A stretch of 64,000 nucleotides of DNA from Gloeobacterales cyanobacterium (GTDB lineage Bacteria > Cyanobacteriota > Cyanobacteriia > Gloeobacterales > PMM-0068), in the NCBI GenBank assembly GCA_038245785.1, contig JBBRSB010000023.1:16512-80511 (forward strand), in the 5' to 3' direction. Each line of letters begins with the position of its first letter. Position 1 is the first letter of the stretch. Made by a program: the position numbers and the translations under genes. Below, one piece after another: positions 1,298 to 36,747 of this stretch. Below the pieces are notes generated by a model. The model worked only from the letters and a program-made list of their open reading frames with translations. It had not been told where the DNA came from and did not search any database.

Positions 1298-2653
1298 ATG
1301 TCCCCAATAGCCTCTATCAACCTTGATACACTCCTTGAGATTGTTAACCACAAGCTGATTGAAGGTCAAAATCGTCCTCTCAACAGTATAGAAGTTCTTA
1401 TGCTGCGAGGCATCTGGCAATATCAGACCTATGGCCAAATTGCCCAAGCTGCTGGATACAGTCCTGGCTATCTAACGAATGTCGTTGCTCCAGAGATGTG
1501 CCAGAGACTCTCCCATCTCGTAGGAGAACGGGTTACCAAGAAAAACTGTCGGATGCTGCTAGAGTCCTACGCTGCTGTCCGAGCATCCCCTAACCCATCC
1601 CTACCCAAGAACCAAGTTTCACGCAAGACTGACCAAAATAGTTTTCCCTGCTATCCCAGCGGCGCAGTCCCTCTTGGCTCCCCTTTTTACATTGAACGTG
1701 TGCCTTTGGAGGAGCAAATTGCTCAAGAAATTCATAAGCCAGGAGCGCTCGTAAGAATTAAAGGGCCTCAGGAAATGGGCAAAACCTCCTTACTCCTGAG
1801 AGTGCTGGATGATGCCGAACGTCGAGGATATCGCACCGTCAGCCTAAACCTGGAACAAATCGACCAAGATATTTTGAGCGATCTGAATCGACTCTTGCGT
1901 TGGCTTTGCGTTACGGTTTCCCGCCAGCTAAAACTCGACCCCCTTTTGGACGAATACTGGGATGAGGATATAGGCAGTAAAGTCAGCTGCAGCTTCTACT
2001 TCCGCAGCTACCTCTTAGAACTCATAGAAGCTCCTATCGTCTTAGCTTTGGACGAGGTGAACCAAATTTTTGAGTATCCCCATGTAGCGAAGGACTTTTT
2101 ACCACTTCTGCGCTCTTGGTATGAAGAATCCAAACGACTCCCCATTTGGCAAAAGCTTCGGCTGATCGTGGTCCACTCGACGGAAATTTACGTTCCTCTC
2201 CAGTTGAATCAGTCCCCGTTCAACGTTGGACTACCGATTCAGCTATCTGGTATTGCTCTAGGGGAAGTCCAGCAGTTGGCCCAACGCTACGGTCTTGATT
2301 GGACCAGTAATCAGGCCCAGCAACTGATGGCTCTGTTAGAAGGACATCCCGCCTTAGTGCATATTGCCCTCTATCATCTCAGCCACGGGGAAATAACCTT
2401 TGAACAACTCCTAGAAACGGCTCCTACCTCCTCTGGAATTTATAACCATCATCTACAGCGTCATTCTGCAGCTCTGGAGCAACAGCCAGAATTAGCCCAT
2501 GCTCTTCATACCGTCATGAACGCCGCAGAACCCGTAGCCTTAGAACCGATCTTGGCCTATAAGCTGAGCAGTATGGGGCTGATCAAGCCGCTCGGAAATA
2601 AAGTAGTTCCAGGTTGTGAGCTGCATCGCCAGTATTTTAAGAATCATGAATAA
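1298..2653 (+). CDS. N-terminal HTH + AAA_35 (AAA-like) domain protein, probable regulator
   Basis: N-terminal 'LNSIEVLMLRGIWQYQTYGQIAQAAGYSPGYL' HTH-like segment; 'PSGAVPLGSPFYIER', Walker A-like GPQEMGKTS, Walker B LALDEV; ATG 1298 preferred over TTG 1289 for spacing from GAGGAG. Confidence 0.85.
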   Translation: MSPIASINLDTLLEIVNHKLIEGQNRPLNSIEVLMLRGIWQYQTYGQIAQAAGYSPGYLTNVVAPEMCQRLSHLVGERVTKKNCRMLLESYAAVRASPNPSLPKNQVSRKTDQNSFPCYPSGAVPLGSPFYIERVPLEEQIAQEIHKPGALVRIKGPQEMGKTSLLLRVLDDAERRGYRTVSLNLEQIDQDILSDLNRLLRWLCVTVSRQLKLDPLLDEYWDEDIGSKVSCSFYFRSYLLELIEAPIVLALDEVNQIFEYPHVAKDFLPLLRSWYEESKRLPIWQKLRLIVVHSTEIYVPLQLNQSPFNVGLPIQLSGIALGEVQQLAQRYGLDWTSNQAQQLMALLEGHPALVHIALYHLSHGEITFEQLLETAPTSSGIYNHHLQRHSAALEQQPELAHALHTVMNAAEPVALEPILAYKLSSMGLIKPLGNKVVPGCELHRQYFKNHE

Positions 2654-3195
2654 GACTTAGGGGACCGTTGATTGTCTTCATGTCGAAATAGCTACTTAAA
2701 AGAAAGGCTAGAAACCTTGTTCATGGCGTGAGAAGAAAAATACAACTAAAAGTTAATACCTTTACCGAAAGATCGTTCAATTGACTTTCTAGTTGTTCTA
2801 GTGAATATTTAGTTGTGCGTAGTTTCTTCTCACAGACTAGAATTCTATATCGTATCCATTCCGACTAGCGTGCACTGTATTAGAAGGCTAAATGCAGATT
2901 TTGCCTAACTAGAGATAGGGAATCTTCATCAGGAATTGGTACTATAGGGTCGTTTAATAATAGCAAAGTTAAAGTTTTAATTTAATGTTTGCTGTTTGCC
3001 AAAGCCAAAGAGCATGCCCCCGACATCAAGGCAAATCATTGTTTTGCATAGCGTTTTAGTAGAAAATTACCCAGCGGATCTAATGCTTTATAGGATTTTA
3101 GTTTTTATTAAGTCATCCTAGATAGTGAAAATTGAAATCCTTAGAAATTACTCCAAAAGTCAAGCTGTACATCATTATTCTAGGAGAACTGAACT

Positions 3196-3831
3196 ATGGT
3201 AGAAACAAATTCACTAGATCGTATTCTCGATATTTTGGGAACCGAAGACAAGTTTGAGGCTCAGACGAAGCTAAAGGAGAAGTTTGGTGAAGAAAAGATA
3301 GAACATGCAGTAAATCAATGGTCAGTATTGTGTGCGTGGTCTTGGCTTGAGCCTGCTGATTATCCACCAAACGAACAACAAGATGGTGACCAGGAAAAGC
3401 TGCGCCGTGCCTTTATCAAGGCAATTAAAGCGACAGCATTGACCTTGATTAAGGAACATTACAAGCCGGGTGCTTTTATGAAGGAGATTACAGCAAGAAG
3501 TAACGACCTGTCTAATATTTTGAATGGAACAGAACCGAAGGACTGTAAAATCAAATTGCCTGAGCTCTATAAAAAGCTCACAAGCAAGAAGGACTATATT
3601 TTTACCAAGGAGCTTACTGATAGCTTCTTATGGTTAACTAGTGTTGATCGATTTAATGGTATGTGTGCAGGCTATCTTCCTGAAAAAAATAAGATTGTAC
3701 AAATATTGGCTTATCCACCCCGTCCCACTACATCAGCTCTACCTAAGGAAGAATTGTTGAGCTGGTGTGAACAGAGTAAGAAAGACGAATACTATCCTCC
3801 TACTCCTTATATTCCCACCTGCAATTGCTGA
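3196..3831 (+). CDS. Putative RiPP precursor/substrate protein with NHLP-like leader features and C-terminal CxC
   Basis: AGGAGA RBS; directly upstream of the YcaO gene; 'SVLCAWSWLEP' and 'ILAYPPRPTTSALPKEELLSW' resemble the nitrile-hydratase-alpha/NHLP motifs 'VVARAWxDP' and 'LVLPxRP...LSEEEL'; ends YYPPTPYIPTCNC. Confidence 0.65.
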   Translation: MVETNSLDRILDILGTEDKFEAQTKLKEKFGEEKIEHAVNQWSVLCAWSWLEPADYPPNEQQDGDQEKLRRAFIKAIKATALTLIKEHYKPGAFMKEITARSNDLSNILNGTEPKDCKIKLPELYKKLTSKKDYIFTKELTDSFLWLTSVDRFNGMCAGYLPEKNKIVQILAYPPRPTTSALPKEELLSWCEQSKKDEYYPPTPYIPTCNC

Positions 3832-3855
3832 GAATTGTAAATTAGTACATTATGA

Positions 3856-3895
3856 AATGGGTATCTTTACCATTTAAGAGGGCAAGATACTCATT
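3856..3895 (+). terminator. 12-bp stem-loop downstream of the precursor gene (partial terminator or mRNA stabiliser)
   Basis: aatgggtatctt (3856-3867) pairs with aagatactcatt (3884-3895), one G-U pair; no clean U-tract. Confidence 0.55.
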
Positions 3896-4010
3896 CCACT
3901 AGAATTGTAGTTTATTGTGTTTTAATTATTAAGTTCTTATTTGCTCAACAGGTTGGCTAGCAGATCAGCTCACGCTCAATCAGGCGCGATTTACCTTACT
4001 TGATTGCAAC

Positions 4011-6293
4011 ATGCATCAGCATAATAAACCAAAACTTAAGGAATATTTTCGACTGGCAACTGAAGCGCCAGAGAATGTGTTTCTTATGTCTGAGAGGAAA
4101 ACCATATTACTTTGCGATCGTCTTTATGTTCAGTTGATTCCTTTACTCGACGGTTGTCATAGTGTTGATGAAATTATAGAACAGTTGCAAGATCAAATTC
4201 CTCCTGCTTATATCTATTACGGGCTGGCTCATCTAGAGAACCAAGGCTATTTGAGAAACAGTGACGAGCTTATCTCTCCATCATTAGCCATCTTTTGCGA
4301 TCACTTGAATATTAATGCCAAGACTGCTTACCATCAGTTGCAAAATACTAAGGTGACCGTCAGGGCAGTCGGCTCTGTTTCTACTTCAGAATTCGTTAAA
4401 ATTCTCAAACTGCACCAAATCCAGGTCACTGAAGATAAGGATTTGGAGACTGAACATGCTGATTTAAAGGTTGTGGTATGCGATGACTACTTACAAGTAG
4501 AGCTAGCAGCCCTAAATCAGGCAGCACTCGATCATTCGTGTCCTTGGCTTCTGGTTAAGCCCATCGGAACTGTGATTTGGCTTGGTCCACTATTTTATCC
4601 AAGAAAAACAGGCTGTTGGGAGTGTTTAGGGCAACGCTTAAAATGCAACCGCCCCGTTGAAGGATATCTAGCGCGACATACAGACACTGTAATACCTCTA
4701 ACACCCTATCTCAATACCATACCTGCAGTTTTGCACACAGCTTGGGGAATGGCAGCAACTGAGATCTTGAAATGGATTGTCCAAGATCGGCAAAATAAAA
4801 GGCTGGAAGGCACCTTAGTCACCCATGATACGCTAACGCTGGAAACTCAGAGCCATACGCTCATTAGGCGTCCTCAATGCCCTAGTTGTGGACTCATGAA
4901 AGGCAGCCGCGCAAACCCAGTTCCTTTGATTCTTGGCAATCGCAAGAAAACTTTTACTGCTGATGGTGGGCATCGTTGCAGTTCGCCGGAAGCAACTTTG
5001 AAAAAATATCAGCACCACATAAGTCCTATCACAGGAATTGTTCGAGAATTACAGAAGTTACCCTATAGCCTGGATGGTTTGCAGCATACCTATGTGGCAA
5101 AACACCATTTCATCTCAATGTTTGATGATCTTAAAATGCTGACTCAAAACATTGGAGGCAGAAGTGGAGGAAAAGGAAGAACGGACACACAAGCACGGGT
5201 TAGTGCTTTTGGAGAAGCTATAGAAAGATATTCTGGAGTTTTCCAGGGCGATGAAATCAGAATCAAAGGGAGCTACCAGCAACTCGCTGAATCGGCTATT
5301 CATCCCAATTCTTGTATGAATTTTAGTCAAGCTCAATACACAAACCGCAAACAATGGAATGACAGTTGTCAAAGTCCTTTTCAAAGCGTTCCCGAACCTT
5401 TTGATGAATTAAGAGAGATCGAGTGGACGCCCGTTTGGTCTTTGACCCAGCAACAGTTTAAGTATCTGCCAACTGCTTACTGCTACTTTGGCTATCCCAA
5501 ACCGTTAAAACCTGATTGTTGGGCAGATACAAACGGTTGTGCAGCGGGGAATACCTTAGAAGAAGCTATCCTGCAAGGTTTCATGGAATTGGTTGAGCGC
5601 GATAGTGTTGCTCTGTGGTGGTACAACAGGATTAAAAGACCTCACGTCAATTTAGACAGTTTCGATGACCCTTATTTCTCAGCTCTACAACGTTCCTATC
5701 AATCGATTAATCGGGAACTGTGGGTTCTTGATATCATCAGTGATCTGAATATTCCAACCTTTGTTGCTGTTAGCCGCTGTTACGATCGAAAAACAGAAGA
5801 TATCCTTTTAGGTTTCGGTGCACATTTTGATCCTAAGATCGCTCTTGGAAGAGCATTGACCGAAATTAATCAGCTCCTGCCTGCGGTTTTAGAAACGAAT
5901 GCTGATGGTGCGTCTCGGTATGCTTCTTCAGCTGAACATTTAGCACTCAGTTGGTGGAAGACAGCAACAGTGCAAAATCAGCCCTATCTAAATCCTGATA
6001 AAAGTAGTGTGCCCAAAGTATATTCTGACTATGAGCACGTATGGAGTGATGATTTGCTTGATGACATTCGTAGATGCCAGCAATTGGTGGAGCAAAGGGG
6101 AATGAAAATGCTAGTGCTAGATCAAACCCGGAGTGATATTGGATTGAAAGTAGTTAAAGTTATTGTGCCAGGAATGCGCCACTCTTGGAAACGTCTAGGA
6201 CCAGGACGACTTTATGACATTCCGGTGCAATTAGGATGGCTACAAGAACCAATGCCAGAAGAGAGCCTTAACCTCTTGCCAATGTGTCTATAA
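4011..6293 (+). CDS. Fused RRE/E1-like + YcaO cyclodehydratase (PatD/TruD/LynD-like TOMM heterocyclase)
   Basis: PWLLVKPIGTVIWLGPLFYPRKTGCWECL, RRPQCPSCG, DGGHR, SGGKG, GEAIERYS, NGCAAGNTLEEAILQGFMELVERDS, RALTEINQ, VKVIVPGMRH, GRLYDIPVQLGW. Confidence 0.95.
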   Translation: MHQHNKPKLKEYFRLATEAPENVFLMSERKTILLCDRLYVQLIPLLDGCHSVDEIIEQLQDQIPPAYIYYGLAHLENQGYLRNSDELISPSLAIFCDHLNINAKTAYHQLQNTKVTVRAVGSVSTSEFVKILKLHQIQVTEDKDLETEHADLKVVVCDDYLQVELAALNQAALDHSCPWLLVKPIGTVIWLGPLFYPRKTGCWECLGQRLKCNRPVEGYLARHTDTVIPLTPYLNTIPAVLHTAWGMAATEILKWIVQDRQNKRLEGTLVTHDTLTLETQSHTLIRRPQCPSCGLMKGSRANPVPLILGNRKKTFTADGGHRCSSPEATLKKYQHHISPITGIVRELQKLPYSLDGLQHTYVAKHHFISMFDDLKMLTQNIGGRSGGKGRTDTQARVSAFGEAIERYSGVFQGDEIRIKGSYQQLAESAIHPNSCMNFSQAQYTNRKQWNDSCQSPFQSVPEPFDELREIEWTPVWSLTQQQFKYLPTAYCYFGYPKPLKPDCWADTNGCAAGNTLEEAILQGFMELVERDSVALWWYNRIKRPHVNLDSFDDPYFSALQRSYQSINRELWVLDIISDLNIPTFVAVSRCYDRKTEDILLGFGAHFDPKIALGRALTEINQLLPAVLETNADGASRYASSAEHLALSWWKTATVQNQPYLNPDKSSVPKVYSDYEHVWSDDLLDDIRRCQQLVEQRGMKMLVLDQTRSDIGLKVVKVIVPGMRHSWKRLGPGRLYDIPVQLGWLQEPMPEESLNLLPMCL

Positions 6294-6352
6294 TTCTCTG
6301 AATATTTTGGTTATTACTGAGTCTCCTATCCCAGCAAACGGTTTTGTATTTT

Positions 6353-7426
6353 ATGTTAAAGGGTTATCGAATCATTGATGCTGATGCTCACGTCCATGAA
6401 CCTCACACTATGTGGGCGGATTACCTTGAGCCTTCCTTTAGACACTTTGCCCCTTCATCGGATCTAAAGATCGGAGGGGAAGCAGTCATTAATCAGCTCT
6501 CTGAGCAGTATTTGCGTCAATGGACAAATCCAATTTTGCAAGTTGAGCCATTAGCAGGTTCTGACCCCCAAATCCAGGTGCAAGCCATAATGCAGATGGG
6601 TATTGACATTGCATTTATTTATCCAACATCACTTTTGTTTATAAGTGCTGTAGATACTATGGCACCTCAGCTAGCAGGTGCTTTTATTCGTGCTTATAAC
6701 AATTGGTTGCACGATTTTTGCAGTTTTAACCCTCAAATCCTTAAAGGTGTGGGGGGTATAAACCTTCATGCTCCAGAAGAAATGGTCCCTGAATTGTTGC
6801 GGGTTGTTGGATTTGGCTGGAAATCAATCTTTATACGCCCTAATCCTGTTAAGGGTCGCATCTTGAGTGATCCAGCTTATGAACCTTTCTGGCAAACCTG
6901 TGAGGAGCTAGAGGTCGCAATCTGTCTTCATGAAGGAACTCCCAGTCGTCTTCCTACTGTCGGAGCCGATCGCTTTAAAAGCCGCTTCGCTTTGCGCTCC
7001 TGTTCACACCCCATGGAACAAATGATGGCATTACTTACCTTAATAGAAGGAGGTGTCCTTGAACGCCATCCTACACTCAAAATTGGTTTTCTAGAGTCAG
7101 GAGGGGGTTGGTTACCCTATTGGTTATGGCGACTCGATCAAGAGTACGAGAATTCACGCTGGGAGCTCGCAAACAATGTGAAGATTAAGCCTTCAGAATA
7201 TTTTCATCGTCAGTGTTTTATTTCTATTGAACCTTCAGAGCCATATCTTGCCCAAATCCTTGATTATATTGGCTTAGATAATATTCTCTTTGGTTCTGAT
7301 TATCCTCACGGAGAGTATCAACCAGATATTGTTGATCAAGTTGTTGCCCTCGAAGAACAACTGTCACGAAAAACTATACAAAAGATTTTATGGGATAATC
7401 CTGCTCGCTTTTATGGGTTAGTGTAA
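6353..7426 (+). CDS. Amidohydrolase_2 family metallohydrolase
   Basis: IIDADAHVHEP, AYNNWL, LHEG, FLESGGGWLP, LFGSDYPH, ILWDNPARFYGL. Confidence 0.9.
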   Translation: MLKGYRIIDADAHVHEPHTMWADYLEPSFRHFAPSSDLKIGGEAVINQLSEQYLRQWTNPILQVEPLAGSDPQIQVQAIMQMGIDIAFIYPTSLLFISAVDTMAPQLAGAFIRAYNNWLHDFCSFNPQILKGVGGINLHAPEEMVPELLRVVGFGWKSIFIRPNPVKGRILSDPAYEPFWQTCEELEVAICLHEGTPSRLPTVGADRFKSRFALRSCSHPMEQMMALLTLIEGGVLERHPTLKIGFLESGGGWLPYWLWRLDQEYENSRWELANNVKIKPSEYFHRQCFISIEPSEPYLAQILDYIGLDNILFGSDYPHGEYQPDIVDQVVALEEQLSRKTIQKILWDNPARFYGLV

Positions 7427-7470
7427 AATTGTAAGACTGATTTCAAATCAAGACGAGAGGGGGGACTGAT

Positions 7471-8481
7471 ATGGCTAGCGAGCAGTTTCCGGTTGCAGGA
7501 GTTGATGAACAGATACTATTTGACTTGAGCTGCTCCAGAGTTATAGGTCCTGTAATAACATTAGCGCAAGAGATCAACCTATTTGAACTCTTTAATCAAA
7601 CACCTCAAACGATTGATAGCGTCGTCAAGAATCTTAAAGTTACACCTTTAGTCTCTGAAGCTTTCATCGCTGTTCTTGCTGCATTTGGGTTACTTCAAAG
7701 ACAAAACGATAAGCAGTTTAAGCTAACAGAAATTGCAAAAACGTATATGCTGCCAGAAAGCCCCTTTTTTTATACAGGGTTTTGTCCTCCGCAAGAATGG
7801 TATCTGGATCTGCTTCGCATGAAAGTTTTAAGTGGCGGTCAACCACCTATGCCACTAGCTGTTGGGATGAAACACCATAGAGTTGAGGTAATACGAAGTT
7901 TCATCGAGCGGATGCATATGATGACACTTCCAGCAGCAGCAAGTTTGGCTAAACAACCCGTTTTCGGAAGAATATCTCACCTCCTTGATGTTGGAGGTGG
8001 ATCAGGTTCACTTGCGATAGCTATTGCAGCAATCAACCCACAGATTCGATGCACAATTATGGATCTCGAACCTGTTTGTCAAATTGCACACGAAAACATT
8101 GAGAAGTATGGTTTGCAAGAACGGGTTACTACTGTTTCAAAAGACATGTTTGAAGATCCCTGGGGAGAAGAACCTGATGGCATTCTATTCGGCAATATCT
8201 TTCACGACTGGGATTTGGAGCGCTGTTATTTCTTAGCTAAACGAGCATTCGATGTACTCAAATCTGGCGGAAGTATCTTGATGCATGAAATGCCTTTAAA
8301 TGAAACAAAAGATGGCCCACTGACAGTAGCATGTCTATCTGCTATATTGCTGATGTATGAGAATGGTAAGCAATATACATTGAGTGAACTAGAAAAGATA
8401 ATGTCCTCAGTAGGTTTTATTAACTTTAAATCTACACCTACCTTTGTTTATTATCATCTAATCACTGCTTCAAAGCCATAA
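7471..8481 (+). CDS. SAM-dependent methyltransferase (Methyltransf_2 type with dimerisation domain)
   Basis: LLDVGGGSG motif I, 'KDMF', 'GNIFHDW', 'LKSGGSILMHE'. Confidence 0.9.
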   Translation: MASEQFPVAGVDEQILFDLSCSRVIGPVITLAQEINLFELFNQTPQTIDSVVKNLKVTPLVSEAFIAVLAAFGLLQRQNDKQFKLTEIAKTYMLPESPFFYTGFCPPQEWYLDLLRMKVLSGGQPPMPLAVGMKHHRVEVIRSFIERMHMMTLPAAASLAKQPVFGRISHLLDVGGGSGSLAIAIAAINPQIRCTIMDLEPVCQIAHENIEKYGLQERVTTVSKDMFEDPWGEEPDGILFGNIFHDWDLERCYFLAKRAFDVLKSGGSILMHEMPLNETKDGPLTVACLSAILLMYENGKQYTLSELEKIMSSVGFINFKSTPTFVYYHLITASKP

Positions 8482-8517
8482 TGTTTTTTAGCAGCTTTAG
8501 GCAGAGGGAGAATCATA

Positions 8518-11500
8518 ATGAGAAGCCTTAATGATTACCAAATTACTACTCAAATCTATGAAAGCTTCAACTCGTTAGTTTATAGGGCGGTTCTTAAAAC
8601 TAATAATCAATCTGTTATTTTGAAGATTCTCAAAGAGGATTACCCCTCCCCCTCAAAACTAACAAACTATAAACAGGAGTATGAAATCACTCGCTCTTTA
8701 AATGCAACTGGAGTGATCAAGGTTTATGGTTTGCAAAGATATCGTAATACGCTTGCAATAATTGAGGAAGATTTTGGAGGTATATCTTTAGATATTTTAT
8801 TAAACTCTAGAGGTCTTGCATTATCAGAATTCCTTACTATCGCCATTAAAATTACTGAGGGTCTGGGTGAGATTCATACTGCTAACGTTATTCACAAAGA
8901 TATTAATCCCTCCAACATTGTTTGGAATGCAAAAACAAATCAGCTTAAAATTATTGACTTTGGTATTTCCACAGTGTTAACGCGTGAAAATCCATCAATC
9001 AAAAATCCGAGTGTTCTAGAAGGAACCCTGGCCTATATGTCACCCGAGCAAACGGGGAGAATGAATCGGGTACTTGACTACACTACGGATTTTTACTCCC
9101 TTGGTGTGACCTTTTACCAAATGCTAACCGGTTACTTGCCCTTTGAAGCGAATGAAGCCTTAGAACTAGTGCATTGTCATATTGCTAAGCACCCCGTTGC
9201 GCCTTATGAACTTAAGTCAGATATTCCTAAGGTAGTTTCTAGTCTGATTATGAAATTGTTGGCAAAAACATCAGAAGAGCGATACTTAAGTGCTTTTGGA
9301 ATAAAAGCTGATCTCGAAGAATGTTTTAGACAGTTACAAACAACTAGAAAAATTCTAGATTTCCCTCTTGCACAACAAGACACTTCTAATAGATTCAGCA
9401 TCCCACAAAAACTTTATGGCAGAGAACAGGAAATTGAAAAATTATTATCAACGTTTAAACGTGTTACTCAGACCAAGGAAGAGCAAGTACGAAAACATGT
9501 CGAAATGATACTAATTCGTGGCTATTCCGGCATTGGAAAATCTGTACTGGTACGAGAACTCTATAAACCAATTACTGCTGAGCAGGGCTATTTTATTTCT
9601 GGAAAGTTTGAACAGTTTCAGCGTAATATTCCTTATTCTGCAATTACCTCTGCCTTTCGTTCTCTCATACAGCAACTCTTAGCTGAAAATGATATACAGT
9701 TATCACAGTGGCGTGAGAAACTCCTAGCAGCACTTGGTTCTAATGGACAAGTAATTGCTGATGTTATACCTGAGATAGAACAAATTGTTGGACCTCAATC
9801 TCCTGTACAGCAACTGGAACCAATAGAGGCACAGAATCGATTTAGCCTCGTCTTTCAAAAGTTTGTCCAAGTGTTTTGTCAGCAATCACATCCACTGGTT
9901 ATCTTTTTGGATGACTTACAGTGGGCAGACTCAGCCAGTTTAAAGGTCATTGATTTGATGATGACTGATGACCAGATGCAATATTTGCTATTAATTGGAG
10001 CTTACAGAGATAATGAAGTTGATCTAAGTCACCCTTTGTCAATAACTCTTAAGGGTTTAGAAAAAGGTGGAGCTATTTTACAATGGATGACCCTGGTTCC
10101 CCTAGCTCTTCCTCATGTTACCCAGTTGATTGCTGACACTCTCCACAACGAACTGGAATCGGTTGAACTGCTAGCAAAATTGATTCACCAAAAAACATCA
10201 GGCAATCCTTTCTTTGTCAATGAATTTCTTAAAACTCTCTACCAGGAAAACCTTTTACAGTTTTCGTGGCAACAGCGTCGCTGGCAATGGGATATTGCTC
10301 AAATTCAGGCTTTAGGTATTACAGAATATGTAGTTGATCTGCTGATTAGTAATTTAAGAAAAATTCCAGAGAAATCTCAACAAGTTTTGTATCTAGCTGC
10401 TTGTATTGGCAATAGTTTTGATCTCCATACTCTCTCAACTATTTACGAAGAACCTGTTGTAAAAACATTTTCAGATCTATTACCTGCTATCCAATCTGGA
10501 CTCATTCAACCTACTTCAAATCTAGAAATTTCTTCAGACGAAACCATCGATTCCTCACTAATTATTCTTAACTTTAATTTTTTACACGATCGGGTGCAGC
10601 AGGCAGCCTATGCCCTAATCGATGATGAGCTAAAGAAAGCTATTCATCTGCAAATTGGACAACTGATATTATCCAATGCTTCATTAAATGAACTAGATGA
10701 AAAAATATTTAAGCTAGTCGATCACCTTAATAAGGGAAAAAACTTAATTGAGCATGAAGAAAAAAAAGTTGAATTGGCTAAATTGAATCTAAAAGCAGGT
10801 AACAAAGCGAAGGAAGCCACAGCTTATGTAGCGGCTAGAGAGTATCTGCTCTCAGCCACCGAAACTTTTCCTGGAAATATTTGGGAAGACAATTATGAAC
10901 TGGCTGTAGAGCTGTATAAAGAACTAGGACAGGTTGAATATCTTAACGGCAACTTTCAGGAATCGGAATTGTTGATTAAATCTAATCTGGATAAAGTCAA
11001 TTCAGCAATCGAGCGCTCTGAATTCTATTATCTTTTAGTCGAGCAGTACACCATGCTTGGCAAGTATTCCGAGGCAATTCAGTCAGGACGCATTGCACTT
11101 GAAGATCTGGGTATTATCTTACCTGATCAGGATTTTGACCAAGCTCTTGAAGCTGAGCTAATTAGATTTAGTGATAATTTAGGCGTTCGAGAAGTAAGTT
11201 CTCTTATTGATAATTTAAAAATGGCAGATCCAGCGAAGCGTTCTGCTTTAGATTTATTGATAAAATTACAACCTCCAACTTATTTGAGTGGTTCAGAGCT
11301 TGCAGGCATCGTAATGGCTAAATCAGCGAATTTGAGTGTTGAACATGGTCATACATCCAAATCTGCGATTAGTTACGGAATATTTGGTATGCTGCATTCA
11401 ATGCTAGGCAACTATCAACTTAGTTACCAACTTACACTGTTAGGATATCAGCTTAGTATAAAATTTGACGACTATTATTCTATAAGCCAAACAGCCAATT

Positions 11501-14500
11501 ACCTTGCTAATTTCTCTCTTTTATGGGTTAGGCACATCAAAGAAACTGAAAGTTTTAATGCTGAATCAATTAATTCTGGATTGCAGTCAGGAATGCTCCA
11601 GTTTACTGGTTTTAGTATGACTCACATATTGTTAAATAGAATTTATCAAGGCAAAAATATATCTCCTTTTCTTGATGAAGCATTTAATATTTTAGCTTTC
11701 TCCAGAAAAACGAAAAATCAATGGTCTACTGATTGCATCTTAGGGCAGGCAATAATATTAGCAAATCTACTGGCTCAGACACAGGACAAACTATATTTTG
11801 GTTGTAATGAGGTTGATGAATCTCAGTACCTAGATGAAGAGGGAACTAGCCGAACCTCAAATGCCATCTGCTATTATCACATTTTCAAGGCTCAAGTTTT
11901 ATACTTATATAACAAGCTAGATCTAGCATTAGTCTCAATTGCCAAAGCTCAAAAACTGTTAGCTTTCATCCCTGGTACTATTCATGCTTCTACTTATAAC
12001 TTCTACTATTCTCTAATTTTAATTGCTCTTTATCCAACTGTCTCTCTAGAGAAACAGCGAGAGTATTGGAGGCAGATTGAGGCTAACCAAGAGCAGATTA
12101 AAAATTGGGTAAATCAATGCCCTGACAATTTTCTCCATAAGTATCTTCTGGTTGAGGCAGAAATGGCTCGTGTATTAGGTAAATGGTATGAAGCAGAGGG
12201 TCTGTACGACCAATCCATTGAGTCAGCAAGAAAATATGACTTTTCCCAAAACGAAGCTTTATCAAATGAACTCGCAGCCAAGTTTTGGCTAGCTAGAGGT
12301 AAAGAAGAATTTGCCCAAATCTACATGAAAAAAGCTTACCAAGGCTATCAAATGTGGGGAGCTAAGCGCAAGGTAAAGGATTTAGATGTGAGATATCCTG
12401 AGTGGTTTAATTCAAAATCATCTTTAAGTCAAGATACTTCTCTCAATCTTTTAAAAACTTCTAAAACTTTCACTGAAGTATTGGATTTAGCCACAGTAAT
12501 AAAAGCCTCACAGGCAATTTCGGGTGAGATAGTTGAAATCGATCTATTAGAAAAGCTGATGAAAATTATGATTGAGAATGCTGGCGCTCAAGTTGGTTTT
12601 CTCATCTTAGAAAAGAAAGGTCAACTAGTAATTGAGGCCCAAGATTCTGTCGAACAAAATGCGGTGATAGTGTGTCAATCAATCCCGGTTGAAACTAGCC
12701 AGCAGTTGCCCCTATCTCTAGTTAATTATGTAGTAAGAACCAGAGAAGATGTTGTCTTGGCAGATGCAACTCGTGAAGGCAGATTCACCGCAGATCCTTA
12801 TGTTTCTCAAAATCGATCTAAATCTATTCTGTGTATGCCGATCGTCCATCAAGGAAAACTTATCGGTTTACTATATCTAGAAAATAATTTAACGACAGAT
12901 GCTTTCACCCCAGACCGATTAGAAGTACTAAAGCTTTTGTCCTCTCAGGCAGCCATTTCTTTGCAAAATGCCCAACTTTATATCGCATTGCGTGAAAGTG
13001 AAAGAAAGCTCGCTCAAATTTTAGAAGCAGTGCCAGTGGGCGTGTTCGTGATTGATGCTAAAGGCAACCCTTACTATGTTAATCGAACTGCCCAACAGAT
13101 ACTTGGGAAGGGCGTCGTACCCGAAGCCACGACTGCTCAATTGCCTGAAACCTATCAAGCTTATCTGGCGGGGACGGAGCAGTTGTACCCCACCGAGCAG
13201 CAGCCCATCATGCGAGCCTTGAAGGGAGAAAGGACAACCATCGACGATCTTGAGATTCACCAAGTTGATAAGATTATTCCCTTAGAAGTGTCAGCCACAC
13301 CAGTCTTCGATGAGAAGGGTCAAATTGTCTATGCTATAGCCGCTTTTGCTGACATCACTCAACGAAGACAAGCAGAAGCCGAGCGCATTCAATTCACTCA
13401 AGAGCTAGCACTCAAAAATGAAGCTTTGCAGGAAGTAACCGATGAATTAGAAGAGTACAGCCGTACTTTGGAGCGAAAAGTTCAGGAGCGTACCCAAGAG
13501 TTGACACAGACTCTGGAAATTCTTAAAGCCACGCAATCTGAACTTCTCTTTGAAAACGATCTCCTAAGAAGTGCTGAGCAAACCTCCAACTTTGACTATC
13601 AAGTAGGGGGGAGTTTGCCCATGGATGCTCCTACCTATGTGGTACGTGCCGCAGACCGTTATCTCTACAAAGCATTGATGCGTGGAGAGTTTTGCTATGT
13701 CCTCAATGCGCGTCAAATGGGCAAGTCAAGTCTTATGGTCCGTATGATCTATCACCTCCAACATGAAGGTCTTAGCTGTGCTGCCATTGATATGACTCGT
13801 ATTGGCAGTGAAAACGTCACGGTGGACCAATGGTACAAGGGATTGGCGATGGAGTTGTGGCAGAACTTTGATCTAATGAGAAAAGTTAATTTGAGGACGT
13901 GGTGGAATGAGCGACTTGATGTTTCTCCTGTCCAGCGGTTGAGTCAATTTATTGAAGAAGTTCTTCTCGTTCATGTCGGAGTAGAAGATGGTCTTCGCAA
14001 ACAAGTAATCATTTTTATTGATGAAATTGATAGTCTTTTGAGCTTAAATTTTCCGGTTAACGATTTTTTCACTCTGATTCGCTCTTGTTATAACCAGCGC
14101 AGTCTCAATCCAGCCTATCAACGGCTAAACTTTGCTTTCTTTGGCACAGCAACCCCTTCGGATTTAATTACGGACTCCCAGAGAACGCCTTTTAATCTTG
14201 GTCAGGCCATCCGTCTAGAAGGCTTTAAAGAACATGAGGCCCAGCCACTGCTTCAAGGATTGGCGGAGAAAGTCAGTAACCCACAGGTAATTCTCAAAGA
14301 GGTATTAGCTTGGACCAATGGTCAACCTTTCTTAACACAGAAATTATGTAGGCTTATACGTACTGCTGCTTCCCCTATTCCTGGCAACAATGAGGCTGAG
14401 TGGATTGAGCATTTAGTCCAAACGCAAATAATAGACCACTGGGAATCACAGGACGAACCAGAACATTTGAGAACCATTCGGGATCGCTTACTCAGTAATG

Positions 14501-14733
14501 ACCAACAGAAGAGACCCTTGTTGAGACTTTACCAAAGAATTTTGCAACAAGATGAAATCCCTGCTGATGATAGCCCTGAGCAAAGAGAATTAGTACTATC
14601 AGGATTGGTTTCTAAACACAAGGGCAAGGACCAAACAGATATGCCCAAACTTATAGCCAATAACCGCATTTACAAGACTATTTTCAATCTGTCTTGGGTT
14701 GAACAGCAGTTGGCTCATCCTGACTCGCGTTGA
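8518..14733 (+). CDS. Multidomain Ser/Thr kinase - AAA ATPase - helical repeats - GAF - PAS - coiled coil - AAA_35 protein
   Basis: [27 protein letters not shown]; GYSGIGKS and [10 protein letters not shown]; GAF '[22 protein letters not shown]'; PAS '[12 protein letters not shown]'; C-terminal '[17 protein letters not shown]...RQMGKSS...IFIDEID...[13 protein letters not shown]'. Confidence 0.9.
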
Positions 14734-14742
14734 CTCGGATGT

Positions 14743-15360
14743 CTAACCATAATTTCGACGGGCAGCGACAGAATAGAACTGAAACTCCGGCATGACCAGG
14801 GCCGTGAGTCTTCCGCCATAGACACATCCCGTATCTAAACCTATAGCAACCGGCTGCCCTTTCCATTGTTGAATCAGCGGTTGTTTCATCACTCGATGGC
14901 CGAATAGCACCAGTCGTTCTTCCTGATAGTTTTTGTACCAGGGCGTACGCATTTCTGTTAATGCTTCTGGCTGTTGCTCTTCCAGTGCTACCCCAAGCTT
15001 TAAGCCAGCATGGACTATATCGCCGTGTTGGGTACGGCGATAGAAAGGTAGATTGCGGAGATAGGCCAAAGCTTGCGGATTTTTTTTCAAAAGTTTTGCA
15101 GTAAGGGCTGCCACATGAGGGAGCGATTTTTTCCCTTCAAAATGGCGAACCATAGCCCAGTCATGATTTCCCATCACCGCCTCAGCCTGAACTTCTTGGA
15201 TCAGCTCAAGGAGCCCCAAAAAGTCTGGCCCCCGATTGCAGAGATCCCCGGTTAGGTAAACGCGGTCAGTCCGTGTTAGCCCTACCTTATCAAGAAGACG
15301 ACCAAGCTCACTTGCGCAAGCATGGACATCGCCAATAAAGATTTCACGGGATTGGGTCAT
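14743..15360 (-). CDS. Metallophosphoesterase (ApaH/PrpA-like)
   Basis: IGDVH, GDLCNRGP, GNHD, VHAG, FGH, LDTGCVYGG; start moved to ATG 15360. Confidence 0.9.
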   Translation of the reverse strand: MTQSREIFIGDVHACASELGRLLDKVGLTRTDRVYLTGDLCNRGPDFLGLLELIQEVQAEAVMGNHDWAMVRHFEGKKSLPHVAALTAKLLKKNPQALAYLRNLPFYRRTQHGDIVHAGLKLGVALEEQQPEALTEMRTPWYKNYQEERLVLFGHRVMKQPLIQQWKGQPVAIGLDTGCVYGGRLTALVMPEFQFYSVAARRNYG

Positions 15361-15489
15361 GTGAAAATAGCACCAACGAAGGAAATACGATCCGCTCGTT
15401 GGTGTTAGTAAACCGCATAACAGCACCCCAGGTCTAGGGTTTGCATTCAGAAAAGTTCTAAATACGGGGTTAGCAGCGATGACTAAGTC

Positions 15490-15957
15490 CTAATATTTAA
15501 ATTCTTCTCCTCCTCTTCTGCGCTCTTTCCGTTCTGCCTTTAACTGATCCAGCTTAGTACGTTGCTCGGGAGTCAAAATCGCATTCAGTTTTTGTTTGTA
15601 GTCATCACGGGCCTGTTGGAGCTGAGGTTTCAGCGTTTGCATTTGGTTGCGAATACTCTGCAATTTCGCTTGGTCCCCTGATTCTCGGGCGGCTTTAGCT
15701 TGAGAGCGCAGGTCTTTCGCTTGAGTCATGAGGGGGCCATTCTTTTGTTTCTCTTGCTCCTTGAGCGCACGAATTTGGTCTTTTTGTTGGGTGGAAAGAT
15801 TCAATTGATCCAGCTTACGCATGCCTCGCTCACCCCTTTCTCCTCGTTCACCTCTTTCTTGGGGAGGAGCTTCAGGAGCAGGAGATGGTTGTGCATAGGC
15901 AACTACGGGAGATAAAGAAAGAACAGCCATGAGGAGGGCGGGAATCCAACGTTTCAT
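15490..15957 (-). CDS. Spy/CpxP family periplasmic chaperone (LTXXQ)
   Basis: Signal peptide, 'LNLSTQQKDQI' and 'ILTPEQR' motifs. Confidence 0.8.
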   Translation of the reverse strand: MKRWIPALLMAVLSLSPVVAYAQPSPAPEAPPQERGERGERGERGMRKLDQLNLSTQQKDQIRALKEQEKQKNGPLMTQAKDLRSQAKAARESGDQAKLQSIRNQMQTLKPQLQQARDDYKQKLNAILTPEQRTKLDQLKAERKERRRGGEEFKY

Positions 15958-34536: not shown

Positions 34537-36747
34537 ATGGTCAAGGAAGTGAGTCAACAAACCATGAGCAATCAGCTAAGCAACAAAATAATTGGTAAAA
34601 ATCTTAATGGGCGATACCGTGTAATCTCTGCTCTGGGGACGGGTAGATTCGGCACAACCTATTTAGCCGAAGATCAGCACCGCCCGGGCCGTCCTCGCTG
34701 CGTAATCAAGCAATTACAGCTCAATAGCAACAACACTCAATTGGTGGAAGTTACCCGTCGGCTCTTCAATACAGAGGCCGAAACTTTGCAAAAAATTAGC
34801 CATCATGAACAAATTCCCGAACTATTGGCCTCTTTTGAGGAGAAAGGACAGTTTTTTCTAGTACAGGAATTTATCCCTGGTCCCTCTCTGATATCGGAAA
34901 TCCTTACAGATCAGGCGTTACCTGAGCCACGGGTAAATAAACTCCTTAAAGAAATTCTCCAAGTATTGGAGTTTGTCCATGCGCAGGGCGTGGTTCACCG
35001 TAATCTCAAAGCAGACAATATCATTCATCATGAGCAGCTCGATAAGTGGGTATTGATCAACTTTGGCTCGGAAAAAGCGCTAAAGGAGATTAGCGACCAA
35101 CTGATGGGCCAAAAGAAAGATGCGGCAGAGACGTTCTCCCCGCCTGGGTATGCTCAGGAAAAATCAACTATCAGCAATGGTCCTTCAGCCAGCTCAGATA
35201 TCTACGCCTTGGGGATGATTTGCCTACAAGCACTCACAGGGATAGCACCCAGTGACATTGAGCGAGATTTGAAAACGGGAGAAATTCGCTGGCCTGCCGA
35301 GATAACATCCCGAGTGAGTCCAAAACTCAGAAATATTATCTCCAAAATGGTATTTCATGACTCCAGCCAACGATACTCATCAGCAACGGAAGTATTACAA
35401 GCTCTCAATACCTCTCCAGGATTCCCTCTCCCTAAACATTTGAAGCCTGTACAGGCTGAACAAACTCCTGAGGCAGTGCCACAGGTGCTCAGACCGGAAG
35501 TGTCCAGACCTGTAACTTCTGCTTTTAATGCTTCTTCCCAGGGCAATCCATTTCCTCTTCCTCCCGATACCCCACAGATGCCAAACAGACCAAGCATACC
35601 GAGGCCTAGAACCGTCCCTGAACGTTCGGATGCGGACTCGGTTTTCGCTCAGCCTGTAGTTGTGGAAACTCCTGCATCTCCATTACCCTTGTGGATGAGC
35701 GGTGTTGGAGTCTTTACCGCTTTTATTGCCGCTGGATTTTTTCTTTGGATCAGCGTTAAATCAGACAGCAATAATGCACTCATAACGAGTAAGCCTCCGG
35801 CTCAAGAATCAACCAAGGAATCAACCACAGCACAGGACCAATTAAATGCTGAGCAGCGAGCCCTTCTGCAAGAGGCGGATACACCAATCAAATCGCAGTC
35901 AGAGCGCAAAGCTTTCAGCCAGCAACAGCTAGCAGCCAAAACTCCTGTGCCTGCATTTAAAGAAGAGGTCCCTGTACCCGTTCCTCCACCTCCTCAACTA
36001 AAAATCCCTGCTGTCTCAGCTCCTCCAACCCAATCAACAGCCAAAGCTTCTGCAAACCAGTCAGCAACGCTCAACAGTTCTACCCAAAACCAGGCATCGA
36101 CCAAATCAAATCTGGCGGTTCCCTCTGTAAAGAGTACGGTAGCTCCTAGTGCAAAGACTGAAGCGAGCACCACAGGCAGTACAACAAAGGCATCAGAACC
36201 TGCTCCTACGCCCTCAAACGTGGAAGATAAGGCCATCCAAGAAGCTAAACCAACAGAACCAGATAAATCTCCTGTAGCTATCCCAGGTCCAATCGTCAAG
36301 AACACTCCAGAGCTAAGCCCAATCCCTAGCAAACAAGAGGCTCCTGCAACTCCTACGCCTCTCCTTTCTGTTAATAAAACTTCAGAACCAAGTTCTTCTC
36401 CTCAGCCTGTAAATAAAAGCGGAGACCGCGATGTTGTTGCGACAGCAAGTCCGGTCAGTAGTCGCGTTGATATTTCTTTAGTCAACGCAACGGGTACGCT
36501 TGTGTCCTATCAAGTCCTTGGAAATACAGACGAGCGTTATCTCTATGCTGATATGAGGTCCAACCTGCGTGGGTTACCCGCACCCGCTAATGTGAGTTTT
36601 TACCGTCCTGACCGTGGGCCGATTGAAATTATTACCAAGACTATCGCACCAGGAAAAGTACAAGTAACGCTCAGACGTGGTAGCGGTCCTGACAACGACC
36701 ATAGCTTTTTGACGGTTCAAGATTCTGGCAAAGTTACGTTGGACTAA
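34537..36747 (+). CDS. Membrane-anchored Hanks-type Ser/Thr kinase-like protein (probable pseudokinase)
   Basis: LNGRYRVISALGTGRFGTTYLAED, CVIKQL, HRNLKADN, INFG, SDIYALG; TM 'LWMSGVGVFTAFIAAGFFLWI'; Pro/Ser/Thr-rich linker. Confidence 0.85.
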   Translation: MVKEVSQQTMSNQLSNKIIGKNLNGRYRVISALGTGRFGTTYLAEDQHRPGRPRCVIKQLQLNSNNTQLVEVTRRLFNTEAETLQKISHHEQIPELLASFEEKGQFFLVQEFIPGPSLISEILTDQALPEPRVNKLLKEILQVLEFVHAQGVVHRNLKADNIIHHEQLDKWVLINFGSEKALKEISDQLMGQKKDAAETFSPPGYAQEKSTISNGPSASSDIYALGMICLQALTGIAPSDIERDLKTGEIRWPAEITSRVSPKLRNIISKMVFHDSSQRYSSATEVLQALNTSPGFPLPKHLKPVQAEQTPEAVPQVLRPEVSRPVTSAFNASSQGNPFPLPPDTPQMPNRPSIPRPRTVPERSDADSVFAQPVVVETPASPLPLWMSGVGVFTAFIAAGFFLWISVKSDSNNALITSKPPAQESTKESTTAQDQLNAEQRALLQEADTPIKSQSERKAFSQQQLAAKTPVPAFKEEVPVPVPPPPQLKIPAVSAPPTQSTAKASANQSATLNSSTQNQASTKSNLAVPSVKSTVAPSAKTEASTTGSTTKASEPAPTPSNVEDKAIQEAKPTEPDKSPVAIPGPIVKNTPELSPIPSKQEAPATPTPLLSVNKTSEPSSSPQPVNKSGDRDVVATASPVSSRVDISLVNATGTLVSYQVLGNTDERYLYADMRSNLRGLPAPANVSFYRPDRGPIEIITKTIAPGKVQVTLRRGSGPDNDHSFLTVQDSGKVTLD

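Follow-up and report, generated by a model that had tools for sequence, protein, structure and literature searches.

The window analyzed in this work, i.e., the whole stretch of 64,000 nucleotides of contig JBBRSB010000023.1 from a Gloeobacterales cyanobacterium (5.0-Mb assembly, 98.2% complete), contains near its beginning the genes of a 211-aa protein (P0001), a fused YcaO cyclodehydratase (P0002), a protein of the Amidohydro_2 family (P0003), and a methyltransferase. These four co-oriented genes were taken in a preliminary description of this DNA for a candidate system of ribosomal peptide or protein modification, and the open reading frame calls confirm that all of them are real and lie on the plus strand (Table 1). 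The extent of the block was underestimated there, since two of its genes were overlooked: the gene of a 2071-aa kinase starts 36 bases past the methyltransferase gene, and the block therefore extends beyond position 8481. The cassette is a larger conserved set, which includes also the AAA_35 gene upstream and the kinase gene downstream. Results of our analysis suggest, with a probability that we estimate at about 0.58, that it is a ribosomal C-terminal azole-forming cassette, in which the 211-aa protein would be the substrate, and the chemistry would be that of YcaO and of a BarH-like amidohydrolase-related dinuclear (diiron) oxygenase (ARO).

Table 1. Genes and features of the cassette (positions refer to the window).
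Feature	Position	Strand	Remarks
AAA_35 protein (STAND-like NTPase), 454 aa	1289..2653	+	PF14516, 9e-149; N-terminal extension of ~120 aa
Candidate substrate protein, 211 aa (P0001)	3196..3831	+	AGGAG ~10 nt ahead of ATG; no known family
YPPRP...LPKEELLSW segment, residues 173-190	3712..3765	+	P-x-x-P and 'LSxxELxxW'-type motif; proposed YcaO recognition
Tail PYIPTCNC, residues 204-211	3805..3828	+	Codons read directly from DNA; stop codon 3829-3831
Fused winged helix-turn-helix (wHTH)/E1-like/YcaO protein, 760 aa (P0002)	4011..6293	+	PatD/TruD/LynD/MusD-type cyclodehydratase
Predicted BarH-like diiron ARO, 360 aa (P0003)	6344..7426	+	PF04909; probable start ATG 6353
Family-2 S-adenosylmethionine methyltransferase, 336 aa	7471..8481	+	Methyltransf_2 and dimerization domain, 2.4e-27
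Pkinase-AAA_16-TPR-GAF-PAS-AAA_35 protein, 2071 aa (P0005)	8518..14733	+	Pfam; conserved neighbor

The 211-aa protein has no match in Pfam or NCBIfam. All its 14 close homologues (43-83% identity) end with PYIPTCxC, and residues P204 to C209 as well as C211 are invariant among them; the C-terminal peptide of the window protein is ...DEYYPPTPYIPTCNC. A wider profile, built from 25 divergent members with the Y-I-P tail and used to search a collection of 5.8 billion sequences, retrieved 96 proteins, all described as 'hypothetical protein' or unnamed and none with a Pfam domain; their source genera include Nostoc, Anabaena, Nodularia, Scytonema, Calothrix, Symploca, and Okeania. In each of the 96 the C-terminus is formed by Y-[ILVM]-P and 3-5 further residues, of which the final one is Ser (35 proteins), Cys (34), or Thr (27). 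The candidate substrates of distant loci are 104-397 aa long and barely related to P0001 by BLAST, yet they have the same type of ending. Their tails include PYIPLSCC, PYIPPTCC, PYIPLSTT, PYIPLSSS, NYIPFTCS, and PYLPLSTC, as well as PYIPTTCS, AYIPVSFS, AYIPISMS, and PYIPLSTCS. The 27 proteins with a Y-[IL]-P tail that were read from the loci end with Cys (11), Ser (10), Thr (3), or Leu (3). The preliminary description had proposed the conservation of the tail and the constant company of YcaO and amidohydrolase genes as checks; the tail proved conserved in the close homologues and, as regards the terminal C/S/T, in the wider family, and both enzyme genes were found near the substrate gene in every substrate-bearing genome examined. 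It is likely that the 211-aa protein is a substrate of YcaO and that the tail is its conserved business end.

Another conserved part of this protein precedes the tail. The 25 very divergent family members all share P174, P177, and W190, and at least 90% of them have Y173. [quoted passage not shown] Probably, YPPRP...LPKEELLSW is the recognition sequence for the leader-binding domain of YcaO. Two different substrate genes with Y-I-P tails occur in tandem in some loci (L019:9040-10704, L022:7887-9131, and L027:6871-9406); those of L022 encode proteins of 116 aa and 198 aa and are accompanied by two ARO genes, while in the 397-aa protein of L027 the corresponding segment, GYPPKP...LTQENIQIW, is duplicated internally.

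According to Table 3 and the accompanying text of PMC2887384, the NHLP/NHase motifs, namely an 'AKAW'-type helix, P-x-x-P, and 'LSxEQL', follow each other in this order. The order is kept in the 211-aa protein, where QWSVLCAWSW is followed by YPPRP and then by LPKEELLSW, all conserved. Neither P0001 nor any of its 14 close homologues matched a model of the NHLP clan (0 families), even with the threshold relaxed to E<=10. One of the 25 divergent members, of 116 aa, had sub-threshold matches to TIGR04351 (8e-9) and to the NHLP leader model TIGR03793 (2.8e-6), and the small precursors matched NHLP models at 1e-3 to 0.1. The comparison of the Y-I-P-tail family with these small precursors by hhalign gave a probability of 2.2%, so that homology of the two substrate types is not claimed. 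The substrate was called NHLP-like in the preliminary description, which appears justified for the order of motifs and not for model matches; the likeness of the whole family is at the level of motifs only, and homology was confirmed neither by profile nor by fold searches.

The small precursors are encoded in a third type of cassette (L023, L024, and L029), with YcaO proteins of 46-49% identity and with one to three precursors of 91-133 aa each. They have an NHLP-like beginning and end with ...LYG[IV][LM]R-x-[C/T/S], the final residue being C, T, or S in five of the six. Their genes are located at L023:4825-6035, L024:2509-2784, and L029:13036-13826, in genomes of the genus Microcoleus and others. 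These cassettes hold also a 490-aa DyP-like protein (in all three loci), and the kinase encoded there ends in PP2C/SpoIIE instead of AAA_35. An ABC exporter gene is present in L023 and L026. [quoted passage not shown]

The heterocyclase of the cassette is of the PatD/TruD/LynD/MusD type. P0002 matches PF02624 (4.7e-105), and both TIGR03604 (4.9e-81; 272.5 bits, cut-off 219.25) and TIGR03882 (1.1e-48; 165.6 bits, cut-off 36.9) are over their cut-offs, i.e., a YcaO of the type found in thiazole/oxazole-modified microcin (TOMM) systems is present together with its leader-binding partner. Among solved structures it matches MusD (1.6e-224), LynD (1.8e-207; query residues 9-758, full length), and TruD (1.9e-206). 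The wHTH, E1-like, and YcaO parts and the matches of PatD/TruD type are in agreement with the fused E1-YcaO heterocyclase that had been described before. P0002 is the sole YcaO of its genome. A domain of FMN-dependent azoline dehydrogenase was not found among the Pfam-scanned genes of positions 1-22019, the rest of the genome not having been searched, and no C39 peptidase or ABC gene was present among the scanned neighbors of the locus. These results, along with the lack of a PatA/PatG gene among the same neighbors, are in line with what had been noticed earlier.

P0003 is assigned by Pfam to Amidohydro_2 (PF04909; 7.9e-33, residues 12-359), a family of the TIM-barrel fold, and its best match in the PDB is PtmU3 (1.7e-32), followed by 8sm6-8sm9 and AibH (6m1w). 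As defined in section 7 of PMC13154177, AROs have an N-terminal D-x-H motif in the first strand and a C-terminal D-x-P-H-x-D/E motif, and this section reports these motifs from no characterized hydrolase or decarboxylase of PF04909. In P0003 they correspond to D14-A-H16 and D319-Y-P-H322-G-E324. D14 and H16 are invariant in all 24 orthologues and align with D and H of PtmU3, whereas the second motif is kept in 23 of 24, the exception being an orphan gene (L032). H196 and E251 are also invariant among the orthologues. Judging by position, without an alignment to LynB7, they may be the equivalents of LynB7 H197 and E252, which are named as further metal ligands in PMC10127204. Moreover, an alignment of 359 residues shows 65% identity between P0003 and UniRef100_B1WQZ4, which is listed as a diiron-dependent ARO in Table 1 of PMC13154177; ATG 6353 (Met4) is the likelier start of the ARO gene, since this relative begins there. 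Both motifs and the identity to B1WQZ4 argue that P0003 is an oxygenase and not a peptidase.

The reactions of related enzymes provide a chemical frame for this assignment. E0U9F9 shares about 60% identity with BarH, LynB7, and DolJ. With a diiron cofactor, it forms 2-phenylthiazole from 2-phenyl-thiazoline-4-carboxylate (PMC13154177, published in 2026). LynB7 catalyzes the same conversion of thiazoline-4-carboxylate to thiazole and does not turn over the 4-carboxamide (PMC10127204). Among published enzymes, the Fe2/O2-dependent oxidative decarboxylation of azoline-4-carboxylates is demonstrated for LynB7 and E0U9F9 only, with small model substrates. The clade of E0U9F9 is called dominant in PMC13154177; about 69% of its members have a 'thiazoline synthase' neighbor, and it has 'no currently known natural product'. 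The BarH-like proteins treated there all come from cyanobacteria or myxococcota. Most likely, P0003 is a BarH-like oxygenase, acting as the azoline-to-azole enzyme for the C-terminal residue.

The linkage between these genes recurs in other genomes. A pattern scan of one genome per species (185,579 species) gave six loci, i.e., four of Microcoleus, one of Argonema, and one of a metagenome-assembled genome labelled Rhizobium. In all six the gene order is AAA_35 - substrate - YcaO - ARO - (methyltransferase) - kinase; their enzymes are 71-81% identical to those of the window, and their substrates 37-49%. Among 401 cyanobacterial genomes, seven were matched in a search with a hidden Markov model, and 24 (~6%), representing 18 of 156 genera, in a search with the ARO. 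Most of the distant loci that were fetched have the order YcaO - ARO - substrate - kinase - AAA_35. Co-occurrence was counted in 29 tabulated loci, with the reservation that genomes may have been counted twice where they are also present among the six named records. ARO is present in 29/29 and a YcaO covering at least half of P0002 in 25/29; in two more genomes YcaO is encoded on another contig, in one it is represented by a fragment only, and in one it is missing. The kinase (first 1500 aa) was found in 27/29 loci, with a contig end and the orphan L032 as exceptions, and a candidate substrate also in 27/29, the exceptions being L026 and L032. A separate homologue of the AAA_35 protein (at least 35% identity over at least half of the length) accompanies 16/29, and fragments of it three more. 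Decay is evident in both loci that lack a substrate, as YcaO is truncated in L026 and the metal ligands of the L032 ARO are mutated (SNYPQMG). The latter gene (L032:9441-10526, genome G160), with SNYPQMG in place of SDYPHMD, has no YcaO, kinase, or substrate nearby, and a YcaO was not found in its genome with our query; it looks like a decaying remnant.

In the pathway that we propose, the N-terminal leader-binding domain of YcaO would dock the substrate, probably at the YPPRP...LPKEELLSW segment, and YcaO with ATP would cyclodehydrate Cys209 and Cys211, and perhaps Thr208, as expected from its family membership. Because Cys211 is the last residue, its cyclization would yield a C-terminal 2-substituted thiazoline-4-carboxylate. 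The diiron, O2-dependent ARO would then turn it into a terminal thiazole by oxidative decarboxylation, as suggested by the identity to B1WQZ4 and by the activity that a reported clade-mate has on a model compound; the expected mass change is -18 Da, and then -46 Da. The need of LynB7 for a free 4-carboxylate fits a substrate whose very last residue can be heterocyclized. In the clade of the window only, the family-2 methyltransferase would add one methyl group, and the adjacent kinase/STAND and AAA_35 proteins may regulate or sense the azole-capped product. The cassette would represent ribosomal azole formation in which another oxidative enzyme does the tailoring and the precursors have the size of proteins.

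With less certainty, we suggest that the product stays in the cytoplasm as a folded protein, its C-terminus capped by an azole, and is not an exported small peptide. The AlphaFold 2 (AF2) model of the 211-aa protein has a predicted local distance difference test (pLDDT) value of 77, with values below 50 in the tail (199-211). Foldseek matched nothing to it at E<=0.001, and its best VIA-align Z among 48,161 chains was 4.8; no nitrile-hydratase-like fold was matched in these searches, which does not exclude such a fold. The model of the 372-aa class of substrates is more confident (pLDDT 88.7, predicted template modeling score 0.91), also with no Foldseek match at E<=0.001 and with the best Z of 3.7 among 48,161 chains. 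A search of the ESM Atlas with homologue P0017 gave no usable match. The gene of P0001 is single-copy in the genome and its core is not hypervariable; the protein contains no Gly-Gly motif, and its N-terminus reads, by eye, as hydrophilic and not signal-like. No protease conserved across the 29 loci was found, and the exporter is limited to 2/29, both in the small-precursor clade. The folding of the 372-aa class, the lack of a conserved protease, of Gly-Gly, and of Peptidase_S8 in the genome, as well as the rarity of the exporter, favor the protein fate. Tentatively, one may go further and think of a new protein modification in place of a natural-product pathway, in which folded cyanobacterial proteins of 100-400 aa, for which no structural relative was detected in the PDB, would acquire a decarboxylated azole C-terminus through YcaO and the diiron oxygenase. 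The capped tail would serve the neighboring Ser/Thr-kinase/STAND/GAF/PAS and AAA_35 proteins as a ligand or substrate, in a kind of genetically encoded 'azole-tag' signaling module of ~6% of the cyanobacterial genomes sampled; we consider it a possible but rather doubtful extension.

The methyltransferase gene is limited to the clade of the window, where it was counted in 6/29 loci (the window and L001-L004, plus L021, a duplicate of L002 outside the table); neither L006 nor any of the more distant loci has it. We regard its product as a clade-specific tailoring enzyme. The methylation considered in the preliminary description is not supported as a core step, and the terminal carboxylate cannot be the target if decarboxylation occurs. 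In two other loci a radical-SAM/SPASM gene is located between the substrate and kinase genes (L018:10219-11598 and L019:10875-12251), a hint that the same tail family may undergo yet another, different modification. A 540-594-aa protein without a Pfam match is encoded directly upstream of the substrate gene in L001-L006, L016/L039, and L017 (e.g., L021:8130-9824, equivalent to L002, L016:7790-9574, and L017:8562-10181), i.e., in every locus with a substrate of the 210-257-aa type except the window. No trace of it was detected by tblastn in the 64-kb window or by a search of the window's genome.

The kinases of the cassettes end with an AAA_35 module in 19 loci and with PP2C/SpoIIE in 7, and one of the neighboring AAA_35 relatives has GGDEF in place of the N-terminal extension. 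P0005 itself has a partial match of 125 bits to TIGR03903, 'TOMM system kinase/cyclase', whose cut-off is 705.75. A single clade of cassette kinases was expected and was not borne out: in a FastTree tree of 24 cassette kinases and 11 paralogues (midpoint root, support values not inspected), at least three groups were formed according to substrate type, interleaved with the paralogues. Since the groups follow substrate type, the kinase can be called core and co-inherited only within each type of cassette. In genomes G029 and G212, the window's kinase is more similar to a paralogue from outside the cassette than to the cassette copy. With its first 1500 residues as the query, 17 and 24 matches, respectively, were obtained in these genomes, several of those of G212 being in tandem (C6:2240098-2284281), while G164 and G150 have two matches each, one at the cassette. 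The kinase and AAA_35 proteins may serve as regulators or receptors, a role that we assign to them by inference only.

Other Pfam-scanned neighbors of the block encode an AraC-type HTH protein, a metallophosphoesterase, an LTXXQ protein, and an aldo-keto reductase, in addition to the AAA_35 protein and the kinase, and the remaining scanned genes of the window are ordinary chromosomal ones (cytochrome c assembly, SSB, catalase, NDH subunits, MutS, and CobQ). Another Ser/Thr kinase, smaller in size (736 aa), is encoded at window positions 34537-36747, 20 kb downstream, with no link to the cassette seen. The numbers of promoters and terminators predicted in 2500-15500 equal those of shuffled controls (27 vs. 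27.5 and 9 vs. 9.3, respectively). A reading of the locus as a defense system was dropped, as the PADLOC matches were generic ones to kinase and methyltransferase domains, and none was specific. The DNA of the window is present in a sediment-metagenome run.

How P0003 acts is the point on which two other explanations of the cassette differ from ours. In the preliminary description it was considered to be a BotAH/PurAH-like peptidase, which releases a small bis-thiazoline that is subsequently methylated. Its Pfam name and the lack of any other protease in the block are consistent with this, as is the use of an amidohydrolase specific for thiazolines by the bottromycin pathway (cited in PMC10127204). 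We find such a role very improbable: the protein has the two oxygenase motifs (which, according to PMC13154177, occur in no characterized PF04909 hydrolase or decarboxylase), a possible H-x-H is not conserved, since 22 of 24 sequences have Y, I, F, T, or L at its second His (H18), the best solved relatives (PtmU3, 8sm6-9, and AibH 6m1w) are oxygenases, and LynB7 and PurAH are only 14% identical (PMC10127204). The names PurAH and BotAH do not occur among the 43 PDB matches of P0003, in which no direct sequence comparison was included. The other explanation is that the ARO hydroxylates, like PtmU3, a C-H of the tail (in Tyr, Ile, or Pro, or at a beta-carbon), the O-methyltransferase caps the hydroxyl, and the carboxylate is kept. 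It is common for a hydroxylase to be paired with an O-methyltransferase that acts after it, PtmU3 is the best PDB match, and both the PtmU3-type Glu and the O-methyltransferase are confined to the clade of the window. However, L006 has the Glu form without a methyltransferase, and the closest characterized relative belongs to the BarH-like or H-ARO group (65% identity to B1WQZ4 vs. 1.7e-32 for PtmU3). The rule of a terminal C/S/T (96/96) is explained by azoline chemistry at the terminus, and it would be predicted neither by a peptidase nor by hydroxylation elsewhere in the tail. Hydroxylation seems to us unlikely.

The same chemistry could also take place on a protein that is only a very long leader, with an unlinked protease freeing a small azole peptide (e.g., ...YIPT-Thz-Asn-thiazole) as a secreted metabolite, signal, or chelator. 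Leaders of the NHLP type are indeed long (Table 3 of PMC2887384), the NHLP-like motifs ('AxxW' helix, P-x-x-P, LSxxEL) are found in order, accessory enzymes differ by clade as they do in biosynthetic gene clusters, and the clade of 91-133-aa precursors has an ABC exporter nearby in two loci. Nevertheless, these two are the only loci with an exporter, no protease is conserved over the 29, the precursor is single-copy, without Gly-Gly and without a hypervariable core, and the 372-aa class is predicted to be a confidently folded globular protein. We leave a small-peptide product as a minor possibility. That the neighborhood is coincidental, with YcaO and ARO using another substrate and the 211-aa protein being unrelated to them, appears extremely improbable. 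The failure of hhalign to unite the substrate subfamilies (probability of 2.2%) may speak for it; on the other hand, the candidate substrate is present in 27/29 loci across 18 sampled genera and the named records, the terminal-residue rule is unchanged in clades that differ in gene order, and the substrate was lost exactly where the enzymes decayed.

The proposal of a terminal azole made by YcaO and ARO has also to be weighed against several observations that do not fit it well. The PYIPLSCL tails of L020, L031, and L034 (3/27) end in Leu, and a free terminal azoline carboxylate is impossible there without trimming; the sixth small precursor has a 28-residue extension after ...MRFT. The last position of the second ARO motif is Glu in the clade of the window, as in the hydroxylase PtmU3, and Asp in the other 19 intact aligned orthologues. 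As Asp is, by published statement, also found in the LynB7/BarH family, the reaction in the clade of the window could differ. The Ser and Thr termini (62/96) would require activity on oxazoline-4-carboxylates, which is not among the activities described in the relevant parts of these two papers. The tie of P0003 to E0U9F9, LynB7, and BarH is through the identity to B1WQZ4 and the motifs, not through direct comparison, and the text of PMC13154177 on the BarH-like cluster does not state that B1WQZ4 belongs to it. An unlinked protease might cut at the invariant PYIP. Finally, no RNA runs covering 2700-8600 are listed, as opposed to three DNA runs from one study, of which one may be the source of the sequence.

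Several known systems share features with the cassette. The cyanobactin enzymes PatD, TruD, LynD, and MusD match P0002 over its full length and have the same wHTH/E1-like/YcaO fusion. In cyanobactin PatE precursors, recognition sequences for proteases flank the core or cores. The window's system differs by the lack of a PatE-like multi-core precursor, as a single fixed tail ends the protein and nothing follows the core, and by the lack of a Peptidase_S8 (PF00082; PatA/PatG-type) match in the 98.2%-complete genome, in a search whose control gave matches in 8 of 14 known genomes. The kinase domain described inside cyanobactin macrocyclases (PMC12639078) is part of a different protein. Bottromycin is similar in its end product, a C-terminal decarboxylated thiazole derived from a ribosomal Cys. 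Its thiazole-forming enzyme is the P450 BtmJ, and PurAH is its thiazoline-specific amidohydrolase (PMC10127204). Here, decarboxylation would be performed by a diiron TIM-barrel oxygenase instead of a P450, the 'amidohydrolase' is not PurAH-like, and, unlike in bottromycin, no follower has to be removed, because nothing comes after the terminal Cys.

The BarH, LynB7, DolJ, and E0U9F9 clade shares with P0003 the PF04909 fold, both motifs, and the cyanobacterial origin (PMC10127204; PMC13154177). BarH, LynB7, and DolJ finish products of non-ribosomal peptide synthetases (NRPS) and polyketide synthases, whereas in our case the thiazoline would be ribosomal and made by YcaO on the last residue of a protein; for the clade of E0U9F9, the parts of both papers that deal with it name no natural substrate or product. 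The NHLP-Burk TOMM system of Burkholderiales (Haft et al. 2010; PMC2887384), left uncharacterized in that paper as far as its account of the system goes, resembles the cassette in having precursors of ~100 aa or more with a final Cys or Cys-Cys, a fused cyclodehydratase-docking protein (TIGR03882), and an adjoining large Ser/Thr kinase. P0001, in turn, has no match to TIGR03795, the model of its precursors, and an ARO is not to be expected in NHLP-Burk clusters, since the BarH-like proteins of PMC13154177 are only from cyanobacteria or myxococcota.

The claim of the preliminary description that the gene set matches no known architecture has to be softened. Both the neighborhood of ARO and 'thiazoline synthase' genes and the reaction on a model compound were already published in 2026 (PMC13154177; the neighborhood in its section 13), so that the set is less unprecedented than claimed. 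The substrate family, the terminal-residue rule, the size and fold of the proteins, the clade-specific tailoring, and the kinase linkage were not found in the main texts consulted or in our literature searches, although gene neighborhoods, perhaps with the substrate genes, may be shown in the supplements of PMC13154177 (Figures S1, S3, S15, and Table S4). We found no description of a cassette of YcaO with diiron thiazole decarboxylation, or of YcaO with an amidohydrolase and a methyltransferase in cyanobacteria.

The window offers a concrete candidate substrate for a cyanobacterial ARO clade that is without a known product, and the candidate substrate family is an unannotated one with a nearly invariant Y-I-P-x-[S/T/C]-x-[C/S/T] C-terminal tail. 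For annotation, a PF04909 protein with D-x-H and D-x-P-H-x-D/E motifs that is encoded beside a YcaO should not be named hydrolase. If our interpretation is true, a terminal decarboxylated azole would be made on ribosomal, protein-sized precursors by a diiron TIM-barrel oxygenase. Such chemistry has so far been ascribed to NRPS pathways (barbamide, lyngbyapeptin, and dolastatin 10) or, in the case of bottromycin, to a P450. The linkage with kinase/STAND proteins in 27/29 loci echoes the Burkholderia clusters of TOMM and kinase genes described in 2010 and hints at a signaling rather than an antibiotic role.

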